Shown in pieces: positions 24,882-62,443 of a stretch of DNA of 64,000 nucleotides. Each line of letters begins with the position of its first letter. Position 1 is the stretch's first letter. Source of the DNA: a bacterium (GTDB lineage Bacteria; Patescibacteriota; Minisyncoccia; Moranbacterales; UBA1568); NCBI GenBank assembly GCA_021821305.1, contig JAKACP010000001.1:748421-812420 (forward strand), given 5' to 3'. Below the pieces are notes generated by a model. It ran no database searches. It saw only the letters and a program-made list of their open reading frames with translations, and was not told the DNA's origin. Both the position numbers and the translations under genes were made by a program.

Positions 24882-24987
24882 AAGATGACTTCCTCGTATA
24901 TCCGATACCACAATCCAATCACCAAACAATCACTCCGTTTGGTTGTTGGAGCCTGGTCCCCGGTCTTTTTTCAAGAGTACCAGGGGA

Positions 24988-25061: not shown

Positions 25062-25095
25062 TCAAACCCGATTCCCACATTTTGCACTAACTATG

Positions 25096-25169: not shown

Positions 25170-25184
25170 GTATTGACCGCCTTG

Positions 25185-25258
25185 TGGGTGATCCAAGATT
25201 CGAACTTGGGACCTCGACATTATCAGTGTCGCGCTCTAACCAACTGAGCTAATCACCC
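25185..25258 (-). tRNA. tRNA-Ile (GAT)
   Basis: GGGTGAT acceptor, anticodon loop CTGATAA, TTCGAAT T-loop. Confidence 0.85.
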
Positions 25259-39794: not shown

Positions 39795-40810
39795 GAGCGT
39801 TGCCCGATGATCTTTTCCATCCTCGACACGAGGAAGATGAACGCCGCGGCAAGCGCGGCGAGGAACAGGAATTTCCCGGCCGCCTGAAACGACAGCGCGG
39901 CGAGGGCGGCGAGGGCGGAGACACCGGTATAGAGAACCGCTACCCGGCGATCGGACCAGCCCAAGAGCCGCAACCGGTCATGGAGATGCCGTCCGTCCCC
40001 GCCGCGGAAGGGCGACGCTCCGGCGCGGACGCGCGCGCGTATGACATAGGCCGCATCGAGCACCGGTACCGCGAGGACGAGGAGGGTCGTGGCTATCTTG
40101 GCCCCGGCGAAGAGCGACAGCGCCGCGACCGAAAACCCGATGAAATACGAACCGGCGGTTCCGGCCATGAGCGACGCCTTGGGAAAATTGAAAAGGAGGA
40201 AGGAGAACGACAGCCCCGCGAGGATCGCGGCGAGGATCGCCACGGCCGGCTGATTCACTTCCGGCCGGAGACTCACGAGGAAGATCGCCGAAAACGCCAC
40301 CGTCGCCACGCCTCCGAGGAGGCCGTCGACGCCGTCCGCCCAATTGACCGCGTTCATGACGAGCACCGTGAACGCGAGACCGACGAGGAAGCTCGGCAAG
40401 AACCACGAATCCGGATGGAGAAACAGCGGTTCCCCGAAGGGATTGGTCAGGACCCATGCACGCATGCCGGAAAGGAAGATGATCGAGGCGAGCGCGAGCT
40501 GGAACAGGAGCTGTGCGGGCCAACCGATCGGAACGATATCGTCCCACGCACCGACGAGGAGGACGAACGCCGCACCGACGAGGAGTCCGATGAGTTGCGG
40601 CGTCGGCTCGAGGTCGGGGTTCGCGGCGACTCCCGCGAGGAACGCGAGAACGAGCGCGACACCGCCGAAACGCGACACCGCCTTGTGCGTCCGCCCGGGT
40701 TCATCGCGGACCATCGGGGCGAATCGACGGGACAGGAACAGGACGAATGAAAGGAGCGCGGCGGAGAGAATGAATGAGAGAAGGAATGGAAAAAGGAATT
40801 TTTCAGGCAT
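39791..40810 (-). CDS. glycosyltransferase family 4 polyprenyl-phosphate sugar-1-phosphate transferase (MraY/WecA-like)
   Basis: AWDD, NAVNWADGVDGL motifs and ~10 TM helices. Start at MPEKFLFPFLL (40810), which lies at the edge of repeat copy B. Confidence 0.8.
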   Translation of the reverse strand: MPEKFLFPFLLSFILSAALLSFVLFLSRRFAPMVRDEPGRTHKAVSRFGGVALVLAFLAGVAANPDLEPTPQLIGLLVGAAFVLLVGAWDDIVPIGWPAQLLFQLALASIIFLSGMRAWVLTNPFGEPLFLHPDSWFLPSFLVGLAFTVLVMNAVNWADGVDGLLGGVATVAFSAIFLVSLRPEVNQPAVAILAAILAGLSFSFLLFNFPKASLMAGTAGSYFIGFSVAALSLFAGAKIATTLLVLAVPVLDAAYVIRARVRAGASPFRGGDGRHLHDRLRLLGWSDRRVAVLYTGVSALAALAALSFQAAGKFLFLAALAAAFIFLVSRMEKIIGQRS

Positions 40811-40943
40811 AAAACACAAAGCATAAAAACACAAAAATCAAAACAAAGCCCAAACCCCTAAAAACACAAAATACAAATCGGATCTCGTTTGATTCCCGTG
40901 TTTCGTGTTTTGTTTGGATTTTTGTACACTGGGTTTTGTGCTT
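40811..40943. repeat. intergenic imperfect-palindromic repeat, copy B
   Basis: AAAACACAAA arms plus core TTTTGTTTGGATTTTTGTACACTGGGTTTTGTGCTTTT homologous to copies A and C. Between the GT2 stop and the GT4 start. Confidence 0.7.
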
Positions 40944-42662
40944 TTACTTCTTCCGTATCTTCTCCGTCACCCAGAATTCGCCGAAATATTTCTTAAGTAG
41001 GATGCGCGTCTGGGAATCGATGGCCGGGATCGCGCCGAGGAGCGCGATGACCGGGGCGAGGAACCACTGCGCGAACATGAGTACGTTGCGCATCGGTCCG
41101 TATTTCTTGGGACGCGGCGGCAGCATGAGGAACGAGAGGAACATGAATATGACGAGGCCGCCCATGGCGAGCGTCATGAGGATGCGGGTGACGAAGGGCA
41201 GATTGTGCGCGAGCACGCTCTCATTGAATGCGGGACCGCCGAGAAAAAGCGGAAGCCATCCGAGGAACGCGAGGATGAGCGGGGCCGTCGCCCAGGAAAA
41301 GTGCCCCTCGATCATCTCGATGGTGACGCGGATCTTCTTCCACAGCGGCATCAGCCGGTCCGGCCAGATCGCGCGCATGGTCACGGGAAAGTTCTCGATG
41401 CCGTACGCCCAGCGACGCTTCTGTTTGTACTCGTTCTTGAGGGTCTTCCAGTACGTGTCGGCAAGGACGGCATCGAGCGAGATCGGAAGCAGTATCGGGG
41501 TCACCTTGTAATCGCCGTGGAAATATGACAGCGCCTTCCAGTAGATGACCGAGTCCTCGCTGATCATGTTGACCGGCCAGAAATTGACGCGCACGAGCGT
41601 ATCGAACGGTTCGGAGTGCGACGAGAAGGTCACCATGTCCTTGCGCGTGCTCTGGTACATGTGCCAGAACGACGACCCCGTGACCATGACGCGCACGAAC
41701 GCGTTCGTATCCCAGAGGTTGTTGTGATACATGGGCAACGGTTGGTAGGCGCGCTGCAGCCGATTCGGATCGGTGATGTAGGCGTAGGTGAGCGCCGAGA
41801 AATACTCCGGGTGGACGACCGAGTCGCAGTCGAAGTTCGAGAAGATGACCCGCTTATAGTCGATATTCCGCTCATCGAGGTAGGTCATGAGCTTGCGCGC
41901 CGCGTATCCGGCATTCGACGCCTTGCAGCGCATCTCGCCTGAAGCCACCTCGTGCGTCGTCACGATGAAATCGCGGAACACGCCGCGGAATTTCTCCTCG
42001 AGGTATTTCACCTTGGGGAGCCGCGTCTCCTCCGGCTCGCGTTCCTCGGTCGCGAGCAGGATGATGACCTGCGACTTCGGGAAGCTGGATTCGGCGATGG
42101 ACCGTATCGACGGCTCGATGATTTCCGGTCCCTCGTTCGCGGTCGGAAGCAGCACCACGTGGACGATATCGCGATAGTCGAGAATCTGCTCCCGTATCGG
42201 TTCGAGTTCGCGGAGCTCCGCGGCATACCGCACGAGTTCCCGGCGCTCCTTGCGGATGATGCGGCGTTCGCGAAAGGAGAGTTTCTCCTCGCGGAGCATC
42301 GCGCGGAGATGTTCGGATCGTTCGAGGAGCTCCGCACGATACTTTCCGGGGTCGCGGACCTGGACCACGCGCTCCCACCAGTTTATCCGTACGCCCCTGC
42401 GGAGCCCGCGATAAGCCATGATGGAGAAGAAGGCCACGTACACGGTGAGGTAGATCCAGTAGATGTCGAACACGATGACGAATACGGCCGCGCCGACCGG
42501 AGCGAGCCACGATCCGACGAACATACCGAGTATGGTCGCCCAGGTGAGCGTACCGGGAATGAGCTCGAGCGCGCGCTGGGCGAAACGGCCACGAGGCTCG
42601 ACGGTTTTCGGATCCGGAAACGTGAACGAGGTTTTCTGCGCGGCCATACCGGTGCGGTCCAT
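40944..42662 (-). CDS. processive family-2 glycosyltransferase (cellulose/chitin-synthase-like, membrane-embedded; QxxRW motif)
   Basis: D, DxD-like (FDCDS) and QKRRWAYG motifs between N- and C-terminal TM bundles. 572 aa. Confidence 0.75.
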   Translation of the reverse strand: MDRTGMAAQKTSFTFPDPKTVEPRGRFAQRALELIPGTLTWATILGMFVGSWLAPVGAAVFVIVFDIYWIYLTVYVAFFSIMAYRGLRRGVRINWWERVVQVRDPGKYRAELLERSEHLRAMLREEKLSFRERRIIRKERRELVRYAAELRELEPIREQILDYRDIVHVVLLPTANEGPEIIEPSIRSIAESSFPKSQVIILLATEEREPEETRLPKVKYLEEKFRGVFRDFIVTTHEVASGEMRCKASNAGYAARKLMTYLDERNIDYKRVIFSNFDCDSVVHPEYFSALTYAYITDPNRLQRAYQPLPMYHNNLWDTNAFVRVMVTGSSFWHMYQSTRKDMVTFSSHSEPFDTLVRVNFWPVNMISEDSVIYWKALSYFHGDYKVTPILLPISLDAVLADTYWKTLKNEYKQKRRWAYGIENFPVTMRAIWPDRLMPLWKKIRVTIEMIEGHFSWATAPLILAFLGWLPLFLGGPAFNESVLAHNLPFVTRILMTLAMGGLVIFMFLSFLMLPPRPKKYGPMRNVLMFAQWFLAPVIALLGAIPAIDSQTRILLKKYFGEFWVTEKIRKK

Positions 42663-49408: not shown

Positions 49409-51058
49409 TCACATCATTCCGCCCATGTCCATGCCGCCGCCATGGGGGTGTTCCTTCTTCTCCTCGGGAAGGTCGACGATCGCCGCCTCGGTGGTGAGGA
49501 GCAATGCCGCGACCGATACCGCGTTCTCGAGCGCGGTCCGCGTCACCTTCAAGGGATCGATGATCCCCGCCTTCACCATGTCCTCCTCGTACGTGTCATT
49601 CGAGGCGTTGTAGCCGAAATTGACGCCTTTTGCCTCGACCACCTTGGCCAGGACGACCGCCGGATCCTGTTCGCCCGCGTTCGCGGCGATCTGCCGCAAC
49701 GGGTCGGAAAGGGCGCGCAGGAGCGTCTCATAGCCCGCCTTGTACTCGTGGCTCTCATATTCCTTCTTCGCGTGGGCCAACGACACGGCCGCCGCCGCCT
49801 TGGCGAGCGCGGTCCCACCGCCGGCGACGATGCCCTCCTCGATCGCCGCGCGGGTCGCGTTCACCGCGTCCTCCATCTTATGCTTCATGTAGGTGAGCTC
49901 GGTCTCGGTCGAAGCGCCCACACGGATCACCGCGACGCCGCCCGAGAGTTTCGCCATGCGCTTCTTGGACTTGTCACGGTCGTATTCGCTCTCCGTCCGG
50001 TCGGCCTGCGCCCGGATCTCCGCGACGCGCGCGTCGATATCCTTCTTCTTCCCCTTGCCACCGACGATGGTCGTGTCGTCCTTGGTCGCGATCACCTTGG
50101 AGGCGCGGCCGAGCTGGTCGATCGTCGCCGCCTCGAGTTTCATCCCGGTCTCCTCCGAGATCACGGTAGCGCCGGTCAGGATCGCGATATCGCGAAGCAT
50201 CGCCTTCTTGTTCTCGCCGAACTCCGGCGCCTTGACCGCGAGCACGGAGAGCACGCCGCGAAGCCGGTTCACCACGAGCGTCGCGAGCGCCTCGCCGTCC
50301 ACGTCCTCGGCGATGATGACGATATCCTTCTTGCCCGACTGCGCGAGCGCGTTCAGTATCGGCACGATGTCATTGATGGCCGATATCTTCCGGTCGGTGA
50401 TGAGGATGTACGGATCGTTCACCTCCGCCGTCTGCGCTTCCGCGTCGGTCATCATATACGGCGAGATATAGCCCTTGTCGAAATTCATGCCCTTCACGAT
50501 CTCCTTGGAGAGACCGAGGGTATTGGACTGCTCGGTCGTCACGACGCCGTCCGATCCCACTTCATCGATCACCGACGCGATCATCTCGCCCATCTCGCGC
50601 GACTCCGCGGATATCGTCGCGACCTGCGTGATCTCCGCCTGGGACGAGATCTTCTTCGAATTCTTGGCGAGTACCGCCGTCACTTCCCGGAGCGCGCCTT
50701 CCATGCCCCGGCGGATGCCGATCGGATTGATGCCGGTCTCGACGAACTTGAGCCCCTCGCGGATGAGCGCGGATGCCACGACGGTCGCCGTCGTCGTCCC
50801 GTCGCCCGCGATGTCATTGGTCTTCTCGGCGACCTGTTTGATGAGCTCGGCGCCGAGGTTCTCATACTTGTCGGGCAGTTCGACTTCCTTGGCGATGGAT
50901 ACGCCGTCGTTGGTGATGGTCGGTCCGCCGAACGACTTGCCCAGGATCACGTTGCGCCCCTTGGGCCCGAGCGTCATCCGGACCGCGTTCGCGACCTTGT
51001 CGACTCCGATCTTGATACGCTTGCGCGCATCCTCGCTGTAGGCGATCTGTTTTGGCAT
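49409..51058 (-). CDS. groEL: chaperonin GroEL (60 kDa), C-terminal GGM tail
   Basis: Full-length GroEL, ending ...GGGMDMGGMM. Confidence 0.97.
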   Translation of the reverse strand: MPKQIAYSEDARKRIKIGVDKVANAVRMTLGPKGRNVILGKSFGGPTITNDGVSIAKEVELPDKYENLGAELIKQVAEKTNDIAGDGTTTATVVASALIREGLKFVETGINPIGIRRGMEGALREVTAVLAKNSKKISSQAEITQVATISAESREMGEMIASVIDEVGSDGVVTTEQSNTLGLSKEIVKGMNFDKGYISPYMMTDAEAQTAEVNDPYILITDRKISAINDIVPILNALAQSGKKDIVIIAEDVDGEALATLVVNRLRGVLSVLAVKAPEFGENKKAMLRDIAILTGATVISEETGMKLEAATIDQLGRASKVIATKDDTTIVGGKGKKKDIDARVAEIRAQADRTESEYDRDKSKKRMAKLSGGVAVIRVGASTETELTYMKHKMEDAVNATRAAIEEGIVAGGGTALAKAAAAVSLAHAKKEYESHEYKAGYETLLRALSDPLRQIAANAGEQDPAVVLAKVVEAKGVNFGYNASNDTYEEDMVKAGIIDPLKVTRTALENAVSVAALLLTTEAAIVDLPEEKKEHPHGGGMDMGGMM

Positions 51059-51081
51059 AATATCGTGTCGTTACGTGTTAG

Positions 51082-51108
51082 TTGGCACTCTCAGTTGATG
51101 ATTGCCAA
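51082..51108. promoter_or_regulatory. CIRCE-like inverted repeat (TTGGCACTC-N9-GATTGCCAA), HrcA operator candidate
   Basis: 9-N9-9 inverted repeat matching TTAGCACTC-N9-GAGTGCTAA at 15/18 positions. Located between the groEL -10 and the start codon. Confidence 0.65.
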
Positions 51109-51111
51109 TCC

Positions 51112-51140
51112 ATTCTAGAAACTTCCTTCTCCTCTGTCAA
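51112..51140 (-). promoter_or_regulatory. groEL promoter TTGACA-17-TAGAAT
   Basis: Reverse strand ttgaca (51140-51135), 17-nt spacer, tagaat (51117-51112). The -35 abuts/overlaps the end of repeat copy C. Confidence 0.6.
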
Positions 51141-51272
51141 GAAAACACAAACGGCCAGAACACAAACATCCAAAGAAAACACGGATTACAAACGGGATCC
51201 TGTTTGTGCTTTTGTTTTTTGTGTTTTTTTTGGCTTTTTGCGCACTGTGTTTTGTGTTTTCATTTTCAAGAT
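51141..51272. repeat. intergenic imperfect-palindromic repeat, copy C
   Basis: GAAAACACAAAC...GAACACAAACATCCAAA (shared with copy A), GGATCC-centred inner palindrome (shared with copy B), core TTGGCTTTTTGCGCACTGTGTTTTGTGTTTTC. Between the ychF stop and the groEL promoter. Confidence 0.7.
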
Positions 51273-52325
51273 TCATATCTTGAAAACGATGACATCCCCG
51301 TCCGCCACGACATAGTCCTTGCCTTCAAGTCGCAAGGTCCCCTCCTCGCGCGCGGCGGCCCAGGAGCCCGCGGCGATGAGCGCCTCGTAGCCGACCACCT
51401 CGGCGCGGATGAATTTCTCCTCGAAATCGCCGTGGATCGCGGCGCCGGCCTGCGGCGCGGTCGAACCCTGGCGTATCGTCCAGGCGCGCGTCTCCACCTC
51501 GCCGGTCGTGAAAAACGTCTCGAGACCGAGGAGCGAGTATGCCTCACGGATGAGTTCTCCGAGCCGCGAGACCATGCCGAGTTCCGCCGCTTCCTCGGCC
51601 GTCATCGTCCCGAGCTCCTCCTCGAGTTTGATATCGAGCCGGACATGCGGGAGGGCGGCGAGTTCCGCTGGAAGCGCGGCATCCGTATCGCTCATATTGT
51701 AGACATAGAGGAATGGTTTCGCCGTGAGAAGCGAGAGTCCTTTCATGAATCTCCCCGACTCTTCCGCATCGCCCGAAAGCGCGACCGTATTCGCGAGCCG
51801 CCCGACCTCCAGCACGGATTCTATCTCCTCGAGCCATTTCATCTCCTGTTCGGCGCCCTTGGCCCGGGCGCGCACGTCCTTGACGGTCTTTTCCTTGCGC
51901 CGGATCACCGTCTCGAGGTCGGCCAACACGAGCTCGGTGTTCACGATATCGATGTCCTCCTTCGGATCGACACGGTTGTGGACGTGGATGATATTGCCGT
52001 TCTCGAATACGCGCACCACCTGGACGATCGCATCCACCTCGCGGATGTTCGCGAGGAACTTGTTGCCGAGACCCTCGCCCTCCGACGCGCCCTTGACCAG
52101 CCCGGCGATATCGACGAATTCGAATACGGCAGGGATGAGCTTCTTGCTCCCGGAAAGCGCGGACAATGCGGCGAGCCGCGCGTCCGGAACCTCGACGACG
52201 CCGACATTGGGCTCGATCGTGCAGAAGGGATAGTTGTTGATATCGACCTGTTTCTTGGTCAACGCCGAAAACAGGGTCGATTTCCCCACGTTCGGAAGTC
52301 CGACGATACCGGCTTTCAGTGCCAT
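51273..52325 (-). CDS. ychF: ribosome-binding ATPase YchF (Obg-like GTPase family, C-terminal TGS/MoaD-like domain)
   Basis: [15 protein letters not shown]1 motif, NxxE/YchF signature, C-terminal TGS-like domain. Confidence 0.9.
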
Positions 52326-52327
52326 AT

Positions 52328-52582
52328 TTACCCTGTGAAATACGATTTGAGCCTATTTCTCAAAAACATCTTTCCTTTATAACTTTTTAGATATTTTTCC
52401 CTATGGGTAGCATCCTGTTGGAACAAACATGCCTCGTAGTAAATCAGCTTCAGGGGTCTACGATCTTTAGTTGATGGAACCAGACCCTTATTGTGCCGCT
52501 CAAATCGTAATTGCAAATCCTTAGTGTATCCTGTGTACATCTTTCCATCTTTTTTACTTAACAACACATATGTATAAAACAT
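52328..52582 (-). CDS. small stand-alone GIY-YIG nuclease-domain protein (UPF0213/YhbQ-like, 84 aa) in a low-GC patch
   Basis: YVLLSKKDGKMYTGYTKDLQLRFERHN GIY-YIG motif. Local GC is far below that of the surrounding window (52326-52790). Confidence 0.75.
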   Translation of the reverse strand: MFYTYVLLSKKDGKMYTGYTKDLQLRFERHNKGLVPSTKDRRPLKLIYYEACLFQQDATHREKYLKSYKGKMFLRNRLKSYFTG

Positions 52583-52790
52583 ATGAACAGGATTTGCAAT
52601 ATTTCACAGGGCAGGCAAGATATTCCCTTATTCTGCCAAAAAAAAGCCTTTCGGTCAACAAAAAAGAGCGGCTATCCGAAGATATCGCCGCCCTTCACGA
52701 TCGCGCGAAAAAAAAGACTGATCTTTGCCGCAGACTCTCTTGTCGAGAATATGCGGAAAAATCAGTCTGTCATGAAGCCTACGCGAAGTG

Positions 52791-53756
52791 TTACTTCACG
52801 GCTTCGAGCTTCTTGCCATTCCCTTCGGCCGACGGCGGCATCGAACTTTTCACCAGTTCCTGGAAATACGCGGCGAATTCGCTGTCGCTGAACGGCGTGC
52901 CCGCTTCCGGAGTCTTCGGTTTCCCGAGCACCCAGTAGGTGGCGCCGATGCGTCCGTCAGGATGCGTGGAGGCCGCGCTCTTGGAAAATGCCGCCGCCAG
53001 ACCGAGAACCGCCCCCAGGGCAGGATTGCTGCTGCCGACGATGCCTGCCGCGGCGCCGCCGAGGGAAAAGCCGTTGCCTTCCGTGCCCACACCGAGTGCC
53101 GTACCGATCGACTGCTCCGGAGAAACGATATAGATCTCCGAATAGCCTTCCAGGTTGTTGAAGACATACTTCACCGTGTCGTCACGTACGACGTTGATGT
53201 TCACCTTGCTTTCCGAGCCCTTTTCGGCCGTCGTCATGATGACGCCGATGCACACGTAGTTGCCGGAAGCCGCAGGAAAGCGCGGAAGTACCCGCGCAGG
53301 CGAGCCGCTCCCGGCGCGCTTTTTCTTGTAGTCCGGGTAGGACGTGAACACGACTTCGGTCTTGCCGCTCCAGCCGGCACCCGCATCGGTATACGAGTCG
53401 TTTCCTTTTGTATATTCCGGCTGGCACTTCTTCTCGAAGTACATGCTCGGAGCGATGTTGTTGATGTTGGTCGGATTCGACAACGGGCCGAAGCTGAACA
53501 CCTGGGGTGTCGGAACCCCGACGCCCGGCATGCCGGGCAACGTCACGGGAATATCCGTACCCTCGCTGTTGAACTGCTGGTCGACATTGGCTCCCGCGAT
53601 ACCGAAGCCGCCGACATTGTTGCTTTGAGCGCCGATGGCGGCGGATCCTGAGACAGCCGTCGAACCGGATGTCGCCGTATTGTCCGCAAGGACGGTTCCG
53701 GCGGTCAGGAAACAGGATATCGCTATGAGCGACAGGGAAAGAGAACGTTTTTGCAT
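52791..53756 (-). CDS. secreted hypothetical protein (signal peptide; G/S/T-rich N-region), 321 aa
   Basis: MQKRSLSLSLIAISCFLTAGTVLA signal peptide. No family recognised. Confidence 0.55.
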   Translation of the reverse strand: MQKRSLSLSLIAISCFLTAGTVLADNTATSGSTAVSGSAAIGAQSNNVGGFGIAGANVDQQFNSEGTDIPVTLPGMPGVGVPTPQVFSFGPLSNPTNINNIAPSMYFEKKCQPEYTKGNDSYTDAGAGWSGKTEVVFTSYPDYKKKRAGSGSPARVLPRFPAASGNYVCIGVIMTTAEKGSESKVNINVVRDDTVKYVFNNLEGYSEIYIVSPEQSIGTALGVGTEGNGFSLGGAAAGIVGSSNPALGAVLGLAAAFSKSAASTHPDGRIGATYWVLGKPKTPEAGTPFSDSEFAAYFQELVKSSMPPSAEGNGKKLEAVK

Positions 53757-53887
53757 GACGGAATTGCTCCTCTATTATCTTGTTCAAGCAAGAAAAGAGG
53801 GTCAAGGGAATGTGTTCTTCCCCTGACCCTTTTGTTTCTGACCTCAGACCGAGACAGTCTCAGTTTAAAAGGTCATCGGCCCCTGCT

Positions 53888-54304
53888 TCAGAACCAGGAC
53901 GAGTATGCCATGCCGCCGGCGCCAGCGCCGGCGGTGCTCATCGCGGTACCGTTCATGACACCTGCGAACGAGCCGGTCATCGAACCTGCGGTCGTACCGG
54001 AGGAGCCACCGGACTGGTAGGCCATAGCGCCCGAAGTCGCGGTTCCCGAGGTAGTGCCCAGAGCGCCCATCACGTTGCCGCCGGTCATGCCTGCGGCATG
54101 AACCTGCGTCGCACCGGTCCAGGACATCGTTTGGGAACCGCCTTGATAGCCGGCGTTGAAGCCGCCTTGCCCGTGAAGGACGGAGGCCCCACCGTCGATG
54201 CCGCCGGAGACCCACGAGTTGCCGGCCGCAATCGATGCGGAGGCGGCGAGGACGAGGGCGAGAGCGCTGATGCCACTGATCACGTTCTTGATGCTTTTCT
54301 TCAT
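53888..54304 (-). CDS. small secreted Gly/Ser/Thr/Ala-rich low-complexity protein (138 aa)
   Basis: GAAGGGA SD. MKKSIKNVISGISALALVLAASASIAA signal peptide, then GGxxG-rich low complexity. Confidence 0.5.
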   Translation of the reverse strand: MKKSIKNVISGISALALVLAASASIAAGNSWVSGGIDGGASVLHGQGGFNAGYQGGSQTMSWTGATQVHAAGMTGGNVMGALGTTSGTATSGAMAYQSGGSSGTTAGSMTGSFAGVMNGTAMSTAGAGAGGMAYSSWF

Positions 54305-54598
54305 TTTGTATTTCCCTTCAGTTGGTTGAACGAACGATAACGACAAAGACGCGACCCTTCTCAAAACAGAACTTTTTTTTTCCTGTCGGAATGGACTGAA
54401 TTTTCAAAGAGCCGCTTGCACCGCTTAAAAAAAACAACGCTCCGAAGGAGCATCGTTCAATTCAGCGGTTTTCACACTTTAGCACACCAAGATATCCTTG
54501 TCAAGTCTCCATACTGCTTTTCTTCTGGACAATGCCTTCCGCATGAAGGAAACAATCGGCCTAAAAAACCGTATTTTGGCTATTAAAAGCCAATACTA

Positions 54599-54627
54599 TT
54601 GACAAGATACGGAAAACATGCTAGACT
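54599..54627 (+). promoter_or_regulatory. promoter TTGACA-17-TAGACT for the LysM-SLT gene, preceded by TTGGCT-N6-AGCCAA inverted repeat
   Basis: ttgaca at 54599-54604, tagact at 54622-54627. AAAGGAGGG SD at 54660-54668. Confidence 0.55.
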
Positions 54628-54674
54628 GTCCCTTCGGATCTTTCACAATTTTTCATCCGAAAGGAGGGCTTGAA

Positions 54675-55478
54675 ATGCTCAGATACGTCATGATTGTCCT
54701 GTGGCTCCTGATGTGCGCCCCGGCATCCGCCGCGGCCTACGTCGTGGAAAAGGGCGATACGCTCTCGCATATCGCCAAGCGCTTCGGCACGACCGTCGGA
54801 TCGCTCGTCGAGACCAACGGCATCGCCGACCCGGATCTCATCTTGGTCGGGCAGACGCTCGACATTCCATCATCAATCTCCACTCCGGAAAAATCTGTCG
54901 CGCAAGCGAAACAGAGTATTTATCCGGAGCCGACTGCGAAAGCAGCCACTCGGGATAAACACGCCGCTTCCTCTACCAATGCACCAACACAGCGCATTGC
55001 CAAGAAGAAGCACCGTGGCGTATCCCGCCACCCGGAAACCGCATTCAAACGCATCGATGCCATCGTGAAGGCATATGATCCGATCGTGGAACAAGCCTCG
55101 CTCCAATACGGAGTACCCAAACGATACATCTACGGACTCATCTATCATGAGTCGGGAGGCAACCCGTACGCCATCGGCGACCGCGGACGCTCCCGCGGAC
55201 TCATGCAGCTCCACGACCCCACGCGGATCAAGCTCGGCCTCACCAAGAAAGAGGCTCACGATCCGGCAAAGGCGATTCCCGCCGGAGCCCGATACCTGCG
55301 AGAACAGTACGACACGTTCGGCAAGGACCCTATCGCGGCCATCTCGGCCTACAACGCTCCGCTTCGCACGAAAAAGATGCTCGCGCGAGGAGCCGATCCG
55401 TCGAGTCGGGACTATGTCCGCAGGGTCAGAGCCGCCATGGATCTCTTCACGGAATACCATCGGGCCAAACAGGCCTGA
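54675..55478 (+). CDS. secreted LysM-domain lytic transglycosylase (LysM + SLT domain)
   Basis: Signal peptide. LysM (YVVEKGDTLSHIAKRFGTTVGSLVETNG). SLT catalytic motif (IYHESGGNPYAIG...GLMQL...AYNA). Confidence 0.85.
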   Translation: MLRYVMIVLWLLMCAPASAAAYVVEKGDTLSHIAKRFGTTVGSLVETNGIADPDLILVGQTLDIPSSISTPEKSVAQAKQSIYPEPTAKAATRDKHAASSTNAPTQRIAKKKHRGVSRHPETAFKRIDAIVKAYDPIVEQASLQYGVPKRYIYGLIYHESGGNPYAIGDRGRSRGLMQLHDPTRIKLGLTKKEAHDPAKAIPAGARYLREQYDTFGKDPIAAISAYNAPLRTKKMLARGADPSSRDYVRRVRAAMDLFTEYHRAKQA

Positions 55479-55594: not shown

Positions 55595-56947
55595 ATGAAT
55601 ACAACGTCTATGAACCCCGAAATCTTCAAGGCCTACGATATCCGCGGCATCTATCCGTCGGAAATGGACGAGGATACCGCATACCGCATCGGACGAGCTA
55701 CGGTCGAGCATTTCTCGCTCCGCTCGGTGGCCGTCGGCCGGGACATACGGACATCGAGCCCGGCCTTGTTCCGCGAGCTCGCGCGCGGGATCATGGATGC
55801 CGGGTGCGACATCCTGGATCTGGGACTCGTCACGACGCCGATGGTCTATTTCGCGGCGGGCCGGCTCGAGGTGGATGCGGCGATCTCGGTGACGGCCTCG
55901 CACAATCCCCCACAATACAACGGCATGAAGATCGCGCTCAAAGGCGCGCTCCCGGTCGGACTCGAGAGCGGCTTAGCCTCGATACGCGACATCGCTCTGC
56001 GTGGCGAGTTCGAGACGCCGGAACGGGTCGGAATCATGACCGAGCAGGATATCAAGCCCGCCTACTACAGCTATTTCGCCTCCTTCGCGGATATGCGGGA
56101 CAAGCGGTTCTCCGTCGTCATCGACACCGCGAACGCCATGGGCATACTCGAACTTCCGATTTACGACCAGTTCGCGGACAATGTCTCCGTCGTGAACCTC
56201 TACAACGACCTCACACGGCCGTTCGAGTGCCATGAGGCGAACCCGCTCAAGATCGAGACCATGGACGAGCTCCGGGAAAAGGTCATCGACACCGGCGCCG
56301 ACATCGGTATCGCCTACGACGGGGACGCCGACCGTATCGGCTTCGTCGACGAGCAGGGAACCCTCGTCCCCATGGACCTCGCGACCGCGCTCCTCGCGGA
56401 GATCATCCTCGCGAAAAAACCGGGAAGCACCATACTCTACGACCTCCGGTCGTCGCGCGCGGTCCGGGAGATCATCGAGGAAAACGGCGGACGGGCCCTC
56501 GAATGCCGGGTCGGCCACGCCAACATCAAGCGTCAGATGCGCACGGACGGAGCCGTCTTCGCGGGCGAGCTTTCCGGCCACTACTACTTCGAGGAGAACT
56601 CCTTCGCCGAAGCCGGGACGCTCCCCGCGATCCTCCTCCTCAACCTCATGGCCGAAACGGGGAAACCTCTCTCGGAACTCGTCAAGAAGACGCGCCGCTA
56701 CTTCCACTCCGGGGAAATAAACAGCGAGGTCGAGGACAAGGACGGCGTCCTCGCGACGCTCCGGGATCGGTACGCGGACGGGAGACAGCACGAGCTCGAC
56801 GGTCTCAAGGTCGAATACGACGACTGGTGGTTCAATGTCCGCCCGTCCAATACCGAACCCCTCCTCCGGCTCAACCTCGAGGCCGAGACGTCCGAGCTGA
56901 TGGAGGCGAAAAAATCCGAGCTCCTCGGTATCATCCGTGGGGAATAA
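55595..56947 (+). CDS. phosphoglucomutase/phosphomannomutase (alpha-D-phosphohexomutase family)
   Basis: Active-site ISVTASHNPPQYNGMK, metal-binding DGDADR, sugar-binding GELSGH-like motifs. Confidence 0.9.
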   Translation: MNTTSMNPEIFKAYDIRGIYPSEMDEDTAYRIGRATVEHFSLRSVAVGRDIRTSSPALFRELARGIMDAGCDILDLGLVTTPMVYFAAGRLEVDAAISVTASHNPPQYNGMKIALKGALPVGLESGLASIRDIALRGEFETPERVGIMTEQDIKPAYYSYFASFADMRDKRFSVVIDTANAMGILELPIYDQFADNVSVVNLYNDLTRPFECHEANPLKIETMDELREKVIDTGADIGIAYDGDADRIGFVDEQGTLVPMDLATALLAEIILAKKPGSTILYDLRSSRAVREIIEENGGRALECRVGHANIKRQMRTDGAVFAGELSGHYYFEENSFAEAGTLPAILLLNLMAETGKPLSELVKKTRRYFHSGEINSEVEDKDGVLATLRDRYADGRQHELDGLKVEYDDWWFNVRPSNTEPLLRLNLEAETSELMEAKKSELLGIIRGE

Positions 56948-57130
56948 GAGCCGGTCTAAAATCTCATGTCTTGGGAAAAGTCACTGATTTCGAGCGAAAA
57001 TCTTGAAAAGTGAGGAGGACTATCATGATAATCCGACGAGCTTTGAAAGGTTTGCAGCCGAAATCAGGGACTTTTACCAGACAAGCGAAGTTTTTTCCTT
57101 TACAAATGCGGTGAGATTTTAGACAGGCTC
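56948..57130. mobile_element. MITE-like element: 183 bp, 19-bp terminal inverted repeats (18/19 match), flanked by TAA/TAA, carrying SD + 29-codon ORF
   Basis: Left TIR gagccggtctaaaatctca (56948-56966). Right TIR tgagattttagacaggctc (57112-57130). TAA at 56945-47 and 57131-33. GAGGAGG-N6-ATG at 57012-57027, ORF 57025-57114 (MIIRRALKGLQPKSGTFTRQAKFFPLQMR). Confidence 0.6.
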
Positions 57131-57133
57131 TAA

Positions 57134-57165
57134 GAAAAAAACCCGTTCTCTATCGAGAACGGGTT
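57134..57165 (-). terminator. Rho-independent terminator for the 57186..57566 gene
   Basis: 11-bp stem aacccgttctc / gagaacgggtt with tatc loop, followed on the minus strand by T7. Confidence 0.65.
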
Positions 57166-57185
57166 CATGATTTCCGCCGCCACAT

Positions 57186-57566
57186 TCAGGAGGCGATTTT
57201 TATCTCCCGCATGAAGCTGTCCCATCGGGAGGAGCCTTTCTCACGGAATCGGACCGCCGTATAGAAACTGGCGACGCCGTCCCCCGGGATGAAGAGGCAT
57301 GGGTACGCTCCCATCTTCGGGCTTTCGAGACGGAGCATGTCCCCTGACTCGCTGTATGGGATATCTTCCTGCCAAAGGAAGCGTTTGACGCGCTCCGCGA
57401 TGTCCTCGGCGGTGCGCCACGGGAACTCGATCCGATACTCGATGATGCCCGCGGCCCGCATGATCACCTTGCGTACCCCTGGCAGGAGCGTTATCTCGCG
57501 GATTCCCAGTACGAATCGGGCGAATCGGGCGATCGTTTCGGAAAAACGTTTCGGAAAAGCCTTCAT
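57186..57566 (-). CDS. hypothetical protein (126 aa)
   Basis: ORF with downstream intrinsic terminator. No family recognised. Confidence 0.45.
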   Translation of the reverse strand: MKAFPKRFSETIARFARFVLGIREITLLPGVRKVIMRAAGIIEYRIEFPWRTAEDIAERVKRFLWQEDIPYSESGDMLRLESPKMGAYPCLFIPGDGVASFYTAVRFREKGSSRWDSFMREIKIAS

Positions 57567-57640
57567 GATGGTACTCCTTTCAAAAGAACTCTACCCCAAG
57601 AAAAGCACCGGGAAGGCCATCTGTCAAACCTCCATGAAAT

Positions 57641-57669
57641 TTGACATTGCATAGTGGTTGGAGTAGATT
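57641..57669 (+). promoter_or_regulatory. promoter TTGACA-17-TAGATT
   Basis: ttgaca at 57641-46, tagatt at 57664-69. The ATG of a 13-codon micro-ORF begins 8 nt after the -10 (leaderless). Confidence 0.55.
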
Positions 57670-57676
57670 GTACTCA

Positions 57677-57718
57677 ATGGAAAAGATCACCTCACATCCG
57701 AAGTGTCCGAAAGCGTGA
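57677..57718 (+). CDS. leaderless 13-codon micro-ORF (MEKITSHPKCPKA), candidate leader peptide
   Basis: Starts at the predicted TSS. The stop codon abuts an intrinsic terminator. 37 nt further is the SD of the 57783 gene. Confidence 0.3.
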   Translation: MEKITSHPKCPKA

Positions 57719-57745
57719 AACCCGACGTCGAGTCGGGTTTTTTCT
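57718..57745 (+). terminator. intrinsic terminator / attenuator (aaacccgac-gtcga-gtcgggttt + T6)
   Basis: 9-bp stem and T-run directly after the micro-ORF and before the 57783 gene. Confidence 0.6.
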
Positions 57746-57782
57746 TGTTCATTTCCAACCTGCCACCGAAAGGAGAATCATC

Positions 57783-58046
57783 ATGAACGCAACCGTCGCC
57801 TCCCTGTTCCACCGGGACGAGGATATCCCGCTTTGCCCACGGATGGTCGGACTCACCCGATCGGATCCCAAGGCATACCTCTGTGACATACCGGCCGATC
57901 TGCGCAAGCAGTTTCTCGGAAACACCCCGTGCTCCGCCCATGCGGGATGTGTCCCGAGAGAACGGGACCCCGAAGCCGTGCAGAACGCACAGCTCGATGG
58001 GGTCTATCGGATGTACCACCTTCGTACCCCGCACGGAACGAAGTGA
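57783..58046 (+). CDS. small Cys-rich hypothetical protein (87 aa, four Cys)
   Basis: AAAGGAG SD. C-x16-C-x19-C-x5-C pattern. Terminator follows at ~58050-58085. Confidence 0.55.
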   Translation: MNATVASLFHRDEDIPLCPRMVGLTRSDPKAYLCDIPADLRKQFLGNTPCSAHAGCVPRERDPEAVQNAQLDGVYRMYHLRTPHGTK

Positions 58047-58126
58047 AAGCCCCATCGGACAGAACTGTCCGGGGGCCTTTTTTTCTTTCCCGGCCACGAC
58101 GCACGATCCCGGAGCTCCGGAACGTA

Positions 58127-59383
58127 TCACGCCAGAAAACCGACCCGCTCCCTCACCTGCCGCATCTTGTCGCTTGCGACGGCGCGGGCCTTTTCTGCGC
58201 CGGCACGGAGGACGCTCATCGCCTCCTCGTCGGAGATACTGGACATCTTCGCCTGGAAACCAGCAAGAAACGACGCGACGACTTCGGCCAAGTCGCGCTT
58301 GAAATCGGCATACCCCTTCCCCGCATACAGGGAAACGATCTCCTCCGGCGTCTTCCCGTCGAGGAGCGAATAGATGGTGATGAGATTCCTGAGCGCGGGC
58401 TTGTCATCCTGATAGGCGATTTCGGTCCCGCTGTCCGTCACGGCTTTCATGATCTTCTTTCTCGCCTGCTCGGGATCGTCGGAGAGCGCGATGTAGTTGT
58501 ACTCGCTCGCCGCGGATTTGGACATCTTCTTGGTCGGGTCGTCGAGCCCCATGATCCGTGCGCCTTCTTTCATCACGCGCGGCTCGGGCACGACAAACGT
58601 CTCGCCGAAGCGGTCATTGAACCGCCGCGCGAGCGTACGGGTCAGCTCCACGTGCTGGACCTGATCGTCCCCCACTGGCACGACCGCCGCACCATAGAGC
58701 AGGATATCCGCCGCCATGAGCACGGGGTAGTCGAAGAGCCCAACGCCGATAGTTTCCCGCTGATCTTTGTATAGATCCTCCATCTTTACAAAGAGTGAAA
58801 CAATGGAACCTAAAGCCTGCATCGAACTCGTATATTGTTTTCTAAAATTCCCTTCATGGACAGACAAATCTAACAAAATAGAAGCGCCATTATCTGAATT
58901 TTTTGTCTCTAGCCACTCCCTAAGCTTAGAGTAGGATTCTTCCACTTTTTGATACAATCTATCATTCTCTCCTCTGGCAGAATTCAAACTATCTACCGAA
59001 GATTTTATAAACTCGTCTTTATCTCTTCGAAGAGAACTAAGCCCCGCCTTATCCTTAAACTGCGTCATCTTCTCAAGGTCTCCGAGGCGTGCCACGGTAT
59101 TGAGTATCCACATGAGCTCGGTATGCTCCGGGACATGCGATTGGACGAAGAGCGTCGCCTTGGACGGATCTATCCCCGCGGCGAGGTAAACCTTCGCGAT
59201 CTCGAGCGTCTTCCTGCGAAGTTCGGCCGGATCCTGAGGCACGGTGATCGCGTGGAGGTCGACCACGGAAAAGAACGCCTCACACTCGTCCTGGAGCGGG
59301 ATCCACTGCCGGATGGCGCCGAGATAGTTGCCGAGATGGAGGTTGCCCGAGGGCTGGATACCGGAAAACAGTCGCTTGTTCAT
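58127..59383 (-). CDS. trpS: tryptophan--tRNA ligase (TrpRS) carrying a ~100-aa low-GC in-frame insertion
   Basis: HLGNYLGA (HIGH), KMSKS, MTQFKDK...LFDYPVLMAADILLY. About 100 extra residues between FKDKAG and LFDYP are encoded by DNA of much lower GC (about 58750-59045). Extended -10 TGCTACAAT upstream. Confidence 0.85.
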   Translation of the reverse strand: MNKRLFSGIQPSGNLHLGNYLGAIRQWIPLQDECEAFFSVVDLHAITVPQDPAELRRKTLEIAKVYLAAGIDPSKATLFVQSHVPEHTELMWILNTVARLGDLEKMTQFKDKAGLSSLRRDKDEFIKSSVDSLNSARGENDRLYQKVEESYSKLREWLETKNSDNGASILLDLSVHEGNFRKQYTSSMQALGSIVSLFVKMEDLYKDQRETIGVGLFDYPVLMAADILLYGAAVVPVGDDQVQHVELTRTLARRFNDRFGETFVVPEPRVMKEGARIMGLDDPTKKMSKSAASEYNYIALSDDPEQARKKIMKAVTDSGTEIAYQDDKPALRNLITIYSLLDGKTPEEIVSLYAGKGYADFKRDLAEVVASFLAGFQAKMSSISDEEAMSVLRAGAEKARAVASDKMRQVRERVGFLA

Positions 59384-59474
59384 AGGAAAAACTGAGTAAT
59401 TCGCTTTCATTGTAGCATAAAAAGAAAAAAGGCGCTCCGATGTTTCGGAACGCCCTCGAGGCGGGACAGGAGGA

Positions 59475-59906
59475 TCACGCCATATCGTTTACGGCGAAAC
59501 CATAGCCTCGTTCTTCGATGACTCTGCCCTGTTCGGCGGCCTGTTCACGAACCACCTCGTGGTTCCGAGGAGATTTCTTGAGGTGGAGGATGGGACGACC
59601 GAAGCGGCCCATGTCCGGCAGCATGCCCGAGAGGACGGTGCGCGTCTCCCGTTCGGTCCCGTCCGGGCTCGTGAATTCGACCACGGCATGGGTGCTTGTT
59701 TGGCTTGCGACCCGATACGGCCAACCCCTTTCCACGAGCTCCACGACACCGGGCTTCGCGATCCTTTGTTTCTCCGGTTTTCTTGCGGGAGGAGGAGCGA
59801 CGGACACGGCGCGAGCCCGGTGGACGGGCTCCTGTTTTGATTTTGGTTTTTCGGACGAATGGAGTGTCCCGATACCGAGGTGCGGTGCGAAAATTTTCCG
59901 TGTCAT
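59475..59906 (-). CDS. hypothetical protein (143 aa)
   Basis: AAGGAGA SD 7 nt before the ATG at 59906. Own TTGACG-17-TATAAT promoter. The upstream part of ORF 59475..60881 overlaps rnj out of frame and was rejected. Confidence 0.55.
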   Translation of the reverse strand: MTRKIFAPHLGIGTLHSSEKPKSKQEPVHRARAVSVAPPPARKPEKQRIAKPGVVELVERGWPYRVASQTSTHAVVEFTSPDGTERETRTVLSGMLPDMGRFGRPILHLKKSPRNHEVVREQAAEQGRVIEERGYGFAVNDMA

Positions 59907-59990
59907 CTTGCTCTCCTTGCCGAAAATCCCCATGATTTCCGGACTGTACGAAGTGTGCGCATGGGGCGCGTCTGAAAGAACATAAAGTAC

Positions 59991-60019
59991 ATTATACATC
60001 TTTTTTCCCATTCCGTCAA
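59991..60019 (-). promoter_or_regulatory. promoter TTGACG-17-TATAAT for the 59906 gene
   Basis: Reverse strand ttgacg (60019-60014), 17-nt spacer, tataat (59996-59991). Confidence 0.6.
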
Positions 60020-60250
60020 GAGTCAAGACGAAAAACAGGCCCGAATGGACCTGCTTTTCAAAAAAGAATTCAAGAATCCTTCCGTATCGGCGAAGTTTTT
60101 CGGAGCGACCGGCTGTCTGAGCCGTCGTTCCGTTCTCGAAAAATAGCCTCGGGATGCCGTCGAATGAGGGATATTTTTCGTAGGAACGGAAGACGTCGAG
60201 TTTCGGTCGGAGGAAAAACTTGTGCCGATACGGAAGGAGACGGCTTCTCG

Positions 60251-62443
60251 CTAAACTTCGACGACCACCGGGAGGATCATCGGACGACGCTCCGTCTTGG
60301 TGAAGAGGAACTGTCCGATCGAGTCGCGGATCTCGTTGCGGATGAGATCCCAGTCGAGGGACGTCTCCTCCGAGGTATTCTTCTTGATGATGTCCTGCAC
60401 CTTGCGCTTGGTCTCGTTCACGAGGTCGAAATTTTCCTTGACGTGGATGAATCCGCGCGAAGTGATCTGGATATTCCCGATGACCTTCTTCTTCCGGCCG
60501 TCGACGACGACCGTGACGATCACCATGCCGTCGGCGGCGAGCATCTGCCGATCGCGGAGCACGACGTGCCCCACGTCGCCGATCCCGAGTCCGTCGACGA
60601 ACACATAGCTCGTATCGGCCTTCTCCTTGAGGATGTGCGGATGGACGCTCCGGTCCTTCGGTATCTCGAGAACATGGCCATTGTCGAGGACGAAGACGTT
60701 CTGCTCGGGATAGCCGAGTCGGTAGGCGATCTTGGCCGCTTCCTTGATGAAGAAGTGGTTCGCGTACACCGGCATGACGTAGTCGGCCTTGGCCTGGCGG
60801 ATGATCTCCTCGATCTCGAAGATGGTCCCGTGACCGCCGATGTGAATCTCCATGACCTCGCTGTGGATCACGTGGTCGCACTTTCGGTAGAGGTTGTCCT
60901 TGAGCCGCTGGATCGTGCGCTCGTTCCCCGGAATGACCGACGACGAGAAGACGATGGTGTCGCTCTTCTGCAGTTTGACGAAGCGATGATTGTCGGTGAC
61001 GATCCGCGAGAGCGCGGCGTTGGACTCGCCCTGCGCGCCCGTGCAGATGAGGACGAGCTCCTTGTCCGGGTACTTGTGCATGTCGTTCACCGTGATGAGC
61101 GTCTCCGGCTTGACCTTGAGGTAGCCGAGCTCCTTGGCGACCTCGATGTTCATCTTCATGCTGTAGCCCTCGAGCGCGACCTTCTTGCCGGCCTGCTCCG
61201 CGTACTCGATGAGATACGTGATGCGGCGGATCTGCGAGGCGAACGTACCGATGATGACGCGGCCGGGGGCGCTCCGGATGAGTTCCTGGAGATTGCGATG
61301 CACTTCCTGTTCCGACGGCGGCAGACCCTTCTTGAGGGCGCCGAGACTCTCGATCATGAGGAGCGTCGGACGCGGGAGCTCCTGGAGATGCTTGTAGGAG
61401 ATCTCCTCTTTCCGACTCTCGAGCGGTTCGTTGGATATCATCCAGTCACCCATATGGATGATGGATCCGGACGGCGTCACGAGCGCGATGCCCATCGAGT
61501 CCATGATCGAGTGTTCCACCTCGAAGAAGCGGACTTCGAACACGCCGAGCTTGAGCCGGTCGTCCACCGATTTGACGCGGATGGTCTTGAGGTACTTGGT
61601 ATCGCCCTTGTACTGGTCCTCGACCTTCCGTTTGATGAGCGCGAGCGTGAAATCACGGCTCACCACCACCGGGTACTTGAGCTGTTTGAGCAGGATCGGG
61701 GCGGCGCCGATATGGTCGAGGTGTCCGTGCGTGAACACGACGCCCCGGATACGGTCTTCCTTCCCCTTGAGATAGTCGACGTTCGGCACGATATAGTCGA
61801 TGCCGGGCATGTCTTCCTCGGGGAACTGCACGCCCATGTCGATGATGACGATATCGTTGCCGTATTCGAACACGGTCATGTTGCGGCCGACTTCCTCCTG
61901 TCCGCCGAGCGGGATGATGCGGAGCGTATCCTGGGGGATCGGCGGCACGGCGCGACTCCCTTCACGCCGGGCGTCCACGTTACGGCGCGATTCCGGAGTG
62001 ACGAACGCTTCCGGACGACGGCCACGGCCGCCGCGACGCCCGCCGGAAGACGGACGGGATGATTTCTTGGCGGCCGGTTTCTGCCCGGACGCCGGGACAG
62101 CGGTTCCCGGTTCCACTCTGGGCTTTCCCTCGGTATGCCGAGGATGCCTTTGCTGAAGGCCCGCGGGCTTGCCCTGGGGACTCCTCTGGGTACGGTCGCC
62201 ATACGGCCGTCGGTCCTGCTTCGGCGCTCCGCGCTCCGGCTTGTACGCCTGGCTTCGCGCGACGACGCCTTCGAGCGCCCCCACCGAGAGCGCGCTCTTG
62301 AGTCCGGCGGAGAGCACGTCTCCTCCGGTCGTTTTCCGGGAATCGCCCTCATTCCGAGGAATGGGAGCGGGGCCGCCCGGCCGGTTGGTGTTGCGGTCTC
62401 CCCGTTTCGGGAAATACCGTCTTTTTTTCTGTGATTCGATCAT
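60251..62443 (-). CDS. rnj: ribonuclease J (beta-CASP metallo-beta-lactamase RNase) with ~170-aa R/G/K/P-rich N-terminal extension
   Basis: IIPLGGQEEVGRNMTVFEYG, HTHGHLDHIGA, beta-CASP motifs. The only Met upstream of the core is at 62443. Confidence 0.85.
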   Translation of the reverse strand: MIESQKKRRYFPKRGDRNTNRPGGPAPIPRNEGDSRKTTGGDVLSAGLKSALSVGALEGVVARSQAYKPERGAPKQDRRPYGDRTQRSPQGKPAGLQQRHPRHTEGKPRVEPGTAVPASGQKPAAKKSSRPSSGGRRGGRGRRPEAFVTPESRRNVDARREGSRAVPPIPQDTLRIIPLGGQEEVGRNMTVFEYGNDIVIIDMGVQFPEEDMPGIDYIVPNVDYLKGKEDRIRGVVFTHGHLDHIGAAPILLKQLKYPVVVSRDFTLALIKRKVEDQYKGDTKYLKTIRVKSVDDRLKLGVFEVRFFEVEHSIMDSMGIALVTPSGSIIHMGDWMISNEPLESRKEEISYKHLQELPRPTLLMIESLGALKKGLPPSEQEVHRNLQELIRSAPGRVIIGTFASQIRRITYLIEYAEQAGKKVALEGYSMKMNIEVAKELGYLKVKPETLITVNDMHKYPDKELVLICTGAQGESNAALSRIVTDNHRFVKLQKSDTIVFSSSVIPGNERTIQRLKDNLYRKCDHVIHSEVMEIHIGGHGTIFEIEEIIRQAKADYVMPVYANHFFIKEAAKIAYRLGYPEQNVFVLDNGHVLEIPKDRSVHPHILKEKADTSYVFVDGLGIGDVGHVVLRDRQMLAADGMVIVTVVVDGRKKKVIGNIQITSRGFIHVKENFDLVNETKRKVQDIIKKNTSEETSLDWDLIRNEIRDSIGQFLFTKTERRPMILPVVVEV

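Follow-up and report, generated by a model that had tools for sequence, protein, structure and literature searches.

We analysed a 64,000-nt stretch of DNA, hereafter the window (contig JAKACP010000001.1 of assembly GCA_021821305.1, forward-strand positions 748,421 to 812,420), in particular the gene of tryptophanyl-tRNA synthetase (TrpRS), trpS, and a long AT-rich insertion within it. The host is a high-GC member of Candidatus Moranbacteria, and the mean GC content of the window is 59.9%. The gene is the minus-strand open reading frame (ORF) 58127..59410 encoding a protein of 427 aa; in one database entry the start is placed at M10, resulting in 418 aa. An identical protein (P0001, 100% identity) is present in the protein database, and the nearest proteins are TrpRS of Candidatus Moranbacteria / Moraniibacteriota from the Candidate Phyla Radiation (CPR). 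The product matches the Pfam family PF00579 of class I tryptophan and tyrosine synthetases with E = 4.9e-73, and its predicted structure is matched by Foldseek to TrpRS structures with probability 1.00. Solved bacterial TrpRS (PDB chains) match it with E about 1e-96 in two blocks, residues 12-123 of the query corresponding to residues 2-113 of Bacillus stearothermophilus (Bst) TrpRS, and residues 218-424 to residues 115-323. The translation contains the HLGN and KMSKS motifs. Together with PF00579 and the PDB matches on both sides of the insertion, this places the protein in class Ic TrpRS.

The two blocks are separated by an in-frame insertion of 94 codons (residues L124-Q217, 58760..59041, minus strand), delimited by the gap in the PDB alignment, the drop in GC content and the break in the alignment with the locus L002. 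On the protein level, L124 follows a glycine, and the last inserted residues K215-D216-Q217 are followed by R218. Residues 124-217 have no counterpart in any solved TrpRS by either PDB sequence or structure comparison. An earlier note, made from the sequence alone, placed a low-GC in-frame insertion of about 100 codons at 58740-59045. The insertion is real and the reading frame is indeed continuous; its extent had been overestimated, and the extra residues counted there included seven native ones (RETIGVG). For the corresponding segment of E. coli the note gave 11 residues between the bordering motifs, whereas our count is about 9.

The GC content in 150-nt windows falls from 0.60-0.66 to 0.37-0.39 across 58750-59050, and that of the insertion itself is about 0.37. 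The GC content at third codon positions (GC3) is 0.33 in the 94 inserted codons against 0.81 in the trpS core (Fisher p = 2e-17). Codon usage changes in parallel. Lysine is encoded by AAG 18 times and by AAA three times in the core, and by AAA six times and AAG twice in the insertion. Arginine codons are mostly CGG and CGC in the core and mostly AGA in the insertion; leucine codons are mostly CTC in the core and TTG, CTT, TTA and CTA in the insertion. Thus the contrast with flanks of more than 60% GC, stated in the note, was borne out by the sliding-window and codon usage profiles. In 120-nt windows there are 22 patches below 45% GC in the 64 kb, almost all of them intergenic, and so a patch encoding a GIY-YIG nuclease is not, as had been claimed, the sole other one. 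In a codon-level scan of the 45 likely genes of the window, the trpS insertion is the sole long intragenic GC3 trough. No internal promoter was found in the AT-rich tract.

Just upstream of the trpS start there is a 13-bp GC-rich hairpin followed by a T run (59428-59457, minus strand), probably serving as the terminator of the preceding gene. Rfam showed neither a T-box nor any other leader in this region. In a related locus, L091, a gene with the Trp-repressor domain PF01371 (827-1387) lies directly upstream of trpS. This gene order may point to a link between trpS regulation and tryptophan in some Moranbacteria.

Insertions in related TrpRS

The 120 best TrpRS matches from a protein database clustered at 90% identity were aligned, and 119 of them could be scored at the loop in question, which lies in the CP1 region of the enzyme. 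Insertions of 30-104 aa occur at the same loop in 47 of the 119 proteins. The insertion is thus not unique, contrary to what the earlier note implied: about 40% of close Moranbacteria TrpRS carry some insertion at this loop. The other scored proteins retain the standard short loop, for example GKSEKETVGVG. BLAST comparison of 46 insertions produced 17 similarity clusters, that is, at least 17 unrelated types. The differences between them are wholesale, in both length and sequence, and are not adenine-specific as they would be in the target region of a diversity-generating retroelement; the window contains no repeat of the insertion. A loose pattern recurs in many of them: the N-terminal helix is acidic (D/E-x-F-E...), and the C-terminal helix is amphipathic and ends with FNSVGVG.

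On a neighbour-joining tree of the cores, insertion types and empty sites are interspersed, so the distribution among relatives, about which the note had left a choice between lineage-specific and sporadic, is sporadic and discordant with phylogeny. Presence throughout the phylum with native codon usage, named in the note as grounds for refutation, is thus contradicted in both respects. The query's own type was found in only one other of the 119 proteins, P0003, with 47% aa identity between the insertions. The core of P0003 is only 72-73% identical to that of the query, whereas insertion-free proteins reach 90% core identity.

No homologues of the insertion were found by HMMER among 1.84 billion representative proteins beyond two tandem-repeat proteins, which were rejected, their scores being inflated by repetition. 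Pfam produced only weak matches to DUF families (E of 0.016 or worse), and the PDB sequence-profile search produced nothing significant. No relatives of the insertion were found in metagenome contigs (two scans), viral contigs, phages or plasmids, and an origin from a phage or plasmid was rejected on this basis. A word-index protein search with the insertion, alone or with 15-aa flanks, was empty; it missed even the identical P0001, which is a limit of the index and not evidence of absence. We found no description of this TrpRS insertion in the literature searched.

Insertions at other sites were observed in two proteins of alignment A3. In P0024 the QDE motif is followed by 15 additional residues (PARNDSQAKRSDSGG), and in P0025 a segment of 10 (SLHRGDSEAR) follows RFG (columns 70-84 and 312-321). 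Hence loop insertions in TrpRS are not confined to the CP1 site.

Probable exchange of the insertions

The similarity of insertions is not correlated with the similarity of cores (Spearman coefficient -0.07, 1035 pairs). P0009 and P0014 have cores that are 99% identical and insertions, of 36 and 60 aa, that are unrelated. The DNA of the respective loci, L088 and L018, is 98.4% identical over 2836 nt upstream and 99.8% identical over 1343 nt downstream, whereas the cassettes enclosed by these flanks, of 126 and 198 nt, are not homologous. The divergence starts about 25 codons before the insertion and ends about 10 codons after it. The opposite situation is observed in P0041 and P0094, where the insertions are 83% identical in cores that are only 75% identical. 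Among pairs with core identity of at least 95%, ten have unrelated insertions, 19 differ by presence and absence, and two have similar insertions.

The query itself shows similar boundaries. The closest relative found, L002, has no insertion. Its alignment with the window has 92.5% nucleotide identity up to 59048 and resumes at 58757 with 88%. In 20-codon windows the identity is 93-98% over much of the gene and 0.69-0.87 around the insertion. With L015 and L016 as outgroups, the substitutions derived in the query genome are concentrated at codons 112-120 and 215-224, and several are changes to A or T. Together with the drop in identity to L002, these query-specific substitutions outline a probable recombination tract (58739..59077, minus strand) comprising the insertion, about 12 codons upstream and about 7 codons downstream. 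A close relative that matches up to the edges of the insertion and yet lacks it, and a sole homologous insertion residing in a distant core, support the horizontal history proposed in the earlier note.

We suggest that this CP1 loop of Candidatus Moranbacteria TrpRS houses a hypervariable cassette, of which the insertion is one allele. Such cassettes would be gained, lost and replaced by homologous recombination, with the crossovers falling in the highly conserved flanks ...NT..GDL.KMTQFKDK and GVGLFDYPVLMAAD.

The helix upstream of the insertion (columns 140-165 of alignment A3, about 59060-59100 in the window) co-varies with the insertion type and not with the core background. It reads NTITKNGDLTK in carriers of types A and B, NTITRNGDLTK in the type-D carrier L018, and NTVARLGDLEK in insertion-free alleles and in the query's type. 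It corresponds to the E. coli helix with the acceptor-stem contacts Tyr100 and Arg106. This co-variation is compatible with a recombination tract extending over the helix as well as with structural co-adaptation.

One alternative is an ancient, vertically inherited and fast-evolving expansion of the loop, repeatedly deleted, with no horizontal exchange and with low GC content reflecting weak constraint. The loose pattern shared by many insertions, from the acidic helix to FNSVGVG, would be expected in this case, and so would their nonsynonymous evolution, 2-4 times faster than that of the core. However, this scenario is contradicted by the comparison of L088 and L018, with unrelated cassettes in 99% identical cores and near-identical flanking DNA. 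It also does not account for the P0041/P0094 pair or for the absence of correlation between insertions and cores. Moreover, insertion-free relatives retain the exact ancestral loop GKSEKETVGVG, which would rarely be regenerated by deletion, and the least constrained third positions of the core are GC-rich. We consider this scenario very unlikely.

Still less probable, to the point of being negligible, is an assembly artefact, that is, a metagenomic chimera in which a trpS segment of a low-GC relative was joined into a high-GC contig. It is true that the source is a metagenome-assembled genome, and that in L018 a scaffold gap with a duplicated flank occurs right after the cassette. On the other hand, the identical protein is present in NCBI, ENA and the independently assembled Logan data, on two contigs (the longest of 826 kb). 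The junctions are in frame, the flanks of high- and low-GC alleles are too dissimilar in nucleotide sequence to give rise to k-mer chimeras, and the same pattern is observed in more than 20 independent assemblies.

The gap in L018 (CAYVDI010000024.1, 3618-3743) is a run of N right after the trpS cassette, with the downstream flank (LMAADILLYDTAVVPVGD) duplicated on both sides. This assembly break at the hypervariable site may reflect mixed alleles in that population.

Mobile elements

The proximity of a GIY-YIG gene led the earlier note to raise the possibility of a homing-type or mobile history. In this case the insertion would be, or would derive from, a selfish element such as an intein, an intron of group I or II, or a repeat similar to Rickettsia palindromic elements or miniature inverted-repeat transposable elements (MITE), or it would be a segment driven by the GIY-YIG nuclease. 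The foreign composition and the sporadic distribution are compatible with this, as are the low-GC GIY-YIG ORF 6 kb away and a 13-bp inverted repeat near the 3' end of the insertion. However, the frame is open, the peptide appears to be under purifying selection (see below), and the insertion has no match in the phage, plasmid or viral collections. Overall, we regard an origin of this kind as highly improbable.

Inteins were rejected: there is no Cys, Ser or Thr at the start, no His-Asn junction, and no Hint or endonuclease domain by Pfam, and the predicted fold is a two-helix hairpin. The absence of intein signatures stated in the note was therefore confirmed, the insertion running from L124 to K215-D216-Q217 before R218. 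Group I and II introns were rejected as well. Rfam (E up to 1) produced no match in 57000-60500, the frame is continuous, and the peptide is under purifying selection. A palindromic-element or MITE-like repeat was rejected since neither the window nor any of 84 related loci contains a second copy of the inserted DNA, and since the insertion lacks terminal inverted repeats.

There is no meaningful target duplication either. The copies of a flanking 17-nt direct repeat (8-mer exact) are spaced 296 nt apart, a distance not divisible by 3; this repeat is at the chance level, as is a 14-nt palindrome at the 5' end. The inverted repeat at the 3' end (58764..58794, minus strand; found by repeat search) has a stem of 13 bp with one mismatch and a 5-nt loop, GGAGG on the coding strand. 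Among 500 codon shuffles, 0.4% reached a stem of this length; the homologous insertion of L001 does not retain the repeat.

The GIY-YIG ORF (52328..52582, minus strand) encodes 84 aa comprising the catalytic domain only (PF01541, E = 6.7e-15), and is situated between ychF and a gene of unknown function. The low-GC patch around it spans 457 nt (52261-52717). The ORF has the appearance of a small gene acquired on its own, with no link to trpS found. No GIY-YIG gene was called in the trpS flanks of the 11 other carriers with listed genes. With a stand-alone catalytic domain 6 kb away, none near trpS in these carriers and no intron, a homing history mediated by this nuclease is not upheld. Thus the idea of a horizontally derived module in an essential enzyme is supported if the module is taken to be a cassette exchanged through homologous recombination, and not a homing element.

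Predicted structure and possible function

An AlphaFold2 model was built on a 50-sequence alignment; its pLDDT averages 80 over the whole protein and is about 58-78 within the insertion. In the predicted secondary structure, helix 1 comprises residues 124-169 (58904..59041), the tip loop NSDNG residues 170-174 (58889..58903), and helix 2, which runs back into the core, residues 175-220 (58751..58888; all on the minus strand). With moderate confidence, the insertion is predicted to be an antiparallel hairpin of two 46-residue helices, roughly 65-70 Angstrom long by our estimate. The type-A insertion of the relatives is also predicted to be helical, at lower confidence.

Two residues before the insertion there is a lysine, K121 (59048..59050, minus strand), equivalent to Bst K111 and Ec K113 with a 10-residue offset to the structures 1i6k and 5dk4. 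Bst K111 is the catalytic mobile-loop lysine that binds ATP phosphates. Residues E219-T220-I221 (58748..58756, minus strand) follow 2-4 residues after the insertion, and by sequence mapping E219 and I221 match E119 and I121 of E. coli. The E. coli numbering used here agrees with the identities of four residues given in PMC12135181 (Y100, R106, E119 and I121). In the crystal structure of the E. coli TrpRS-tRNA(Trp) complex, CP1 comprises residues 86-139; of these, Tyr100 and Arg106 bind phosphates of the acceptor stem, while Glu119 and Ile121 reach the phosphates of C68 and C69 in the same stem through water-mediated contacts (PMC12135181). Since the insertion lies between K121 and E219/I221, the arm would leave the CP1 loop with the catalytic lysine on one side and the residues contacting the acceptor stem on the other.

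The comparison with P0003 points to selection on the inserted peptide. In the insertion pN is 0.33 and pS is 0.91, whereas core pN is 0.18. The block EGNFRKQY (residues 186-193, 58832..58855, minus strand) is identical in P0003, the sole homologous insertion, although six of its eight codons differ synonymously. As judged from the ratio of pN to pS and from the identity of this block despite synonymous change, the insertion is under purifying selection at the protein level, and is thus a selected polypeptide rather than junk. EGNFRKQY is a candidate binding patch.

The arm is probably an accessory surface that binds either the acceptor and T-arm of tRNA or a protein partner, a function that we infer from its place in the enzyme. 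Given this position, an additional contact with the acceptor and T-arm of tRNA seems the most plausible role.

Composition of the cassettes

GC3 of the insertion is lower than GC3 of the core in all 24 carriers for which DNA is available, whatever the GC content of the host. In the ten carriers from the high-GC clade it is 0.28-0.47, compared to 0.69-0.83 in the core. One insertion type keeps one composition in hosts of different GC content. Indeed, for type B the insertion GC3 is 0.28 both in L086, with core GC3 0.73, and in L092, with core GC3 0.49, and for type A it is 0.34 in both L091 (core 0.69) and L093 (core 0.54). Relaxed constraint and selection for accurate codons were rejected as causes of the low GC3, since the least conserved sites of the trpS core have GC3 of 0.92, the highest in the core.

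The simplest reading is a horizontally circulating pool of low-GC cassettes with fast turnover. The low GC content would be kept from a pool dominated by low-GC lineages, the residence in each host being too short for drift to the host composition. We consider it probable that the translated, putatively helical-hairpin insertion of the query is a hypervariable cassette exchanged by homologous recombination and that its low GC content derives from such a pool.

Several observations weigh against this. As all ten high-GC-clade carriers have low-GC insertions, every import would need to be recent. L090 and L091 share a type-A insertion at core pS of 0.65, and both insertions still have low GC3, which is better explained by a persistent local AT bias than by simple non-amelioration. 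The event may have been a gain in the query genome or a loss in L002, all outgroups used being insertion-free, and a closer donor sequence was not found among metagenome and viral contigs. The counts of discordant pairs are inflated, as clustering of the database at 90% identity merges pairs with identical insertions. The confidence in the hairpin is only moderate, with a single homologue of the insertion in the alignment. Finally, 46 of the 47 insertions are net acidic (net charge -2 in the query), which is atypical for an RNA-binding arm; hence a protein partner, discrimination or a shielding role are real alternatives to the tRNA contact.

Another possibility, less likely in our opinion and still worth serious consideration, is that the low GC content reflects not a recent foreign origin but a persistent local compositional regime acting on the cassette; exchange may still occur. 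In one variant, an insertion without a homologous partner in most recombining relatives escapes GC-biased gene conversion and decays towards an AT-rich mutational equilibrium. In another, AT-rich or rare codons are selected for, for example to create a translation pause between the halves of the Rossmann fold. Such a regime would account for the 24 carriers, low-GC hosts included, for insertion GC3 of about 0.2-0.4 regardless of host GC3 (0.29-0.83), and for the L090/L091 pair. In addition, the compositional boundaries coincide with the limits of homology, and intergenic DNA of the query genome has about 40-45% GC as well. On the other hand, lineage-specific genes of the window without a Pfam match retain high GC3, about 0.75 (for example 52791-53771), the variable core sites are even more GC-rich, and recombination within a population should cover the insertion too.

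The intergenic regions 51026-51344, 54257-54716, 56907-57212 and 40717-41027 have about 41-44% GC against coding GC3 of about 0.8. Such AT-rich intergenic DNA bears on the force that keeps coding GC content high in a genome of 60% GC.

Comparison with known systems

Seryl-tRNA synthetase (SerRS) has an N-terminal antiparallel coiled-coil arm that binds tRNA and is universal and conserved. The predicted TrpRS arm resembles it as a long antiparallel two-helix hairpin that protrudes from the catalytic domain of a synthetase (AlphaFold) and adjoins residues contacting the acceptor stem. However, it is situated inside CP1 of a class Ic enzyme rather than at the N-terminus and is net acidic. It is also hypervariable, optional between near-identical strains and horizontally shuffled, and its contact with tRNA is putative.

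Mosaic genes of penicillin-binding proteins in Streptococcus and Neisseria were made by interspecies homologous recombination. As in trpS, the rest of the essential gene is closely related, the embedded segment is foreign in composition and divergence, and the breakpoints fall in conserved stretches. Unlike them, the TrpRS block is a length-variable cassette that is present or absent, not a divergent version of the same residues, and it is not known to be selected by an agent such as an antibiotic.

Rickettsia palindromic elements are selfish repeats inserted in frame in protein genes. They share with the TrpRS insertions the addition of in-frame peptides at surface positions of essential proteins, tolerated by the fold. 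However, no multi-copy family of the query's insertion was found in the window or in the 84 related loci, this insertion is not palindromic over its length, and the TrpRS insertions have diverse sequences at one site of one gene.

Lineage-specific insertions in the beta and beta' subunits of RNA polymerase and N-terminal insertions in Rho are generally clade-fixed and vertically inherited. They are likewise clade-restricted insertions at a permissive surface loop of a universal enzyme, whereas the TrpRS cassette varies between strains with 98.4-99.8% identical flanking DNA.

Synthetases belong to the most conserved proteins, and insertions in them are normally treated as fixed and clade-defining, whereas the TrpRS arm is present, absent or different in near-identical strains, and its AT-rich composition is maintained in genomes from about 37% to 60% GC. 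Both insertion and recombination are familiar as categories, and it is the optional, sequence-unrelated cassette on the rim of a synthetase active site that is surprising. The locus may be considered a natural experiment on the structural variation tolerated at the TrpRS active-site rim, and a clean system in which horizontal import could be told apart from compositional forces that act locally in high-GC CPR genomes, escape from GC-biased gene conversion being one of them. It is also a candidate site of molecular conflict, or of lineage-specific recognition of tRNA or a partner, in as yet uncultured organisms. On the practical side, the loop breaks assemblies, as in L018, and would mislead phylogenies or indel markers based on trpS.

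More speculatively, and in our view rather doubtfully, the CP1 arm could be a recombination-shuffled module kept diverse by conflict, being a contact surface or decoy for an attacker of TrpRS. The attacker might be a phage protein, a HipT-type toxin kinase, an inter-bacterial effector or a natural-product inhibitor. Alternatively, the arm could serve a lineage-specific interaction in the episymbiotic life of these bacteria. If so, the strains would swap arms like surface antigens, and this would be the first antigen-like variable cassette described in an aminoacyl-tRNA synthetase. The uniform AT-richness in hosts of any GC content would then be the mark of a shared pool of mobile cassettes.

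Other features of the window

In the ORF 18004-18768, encoding a membrane protein, GC3 is about 0.24 in the last 32 or so codons (18004-18099, minus strand), which specify a tail rich in Lys, Thr and Gln. This tail is probably a read-through into AT-rich intergenic DNA and not a true domain. tRNA-Trp is not among the tRNA genes of the window. Four tRNA genes, Asp, Met, Met and Ile, are clustered at 24805-25258 on the minus strand.

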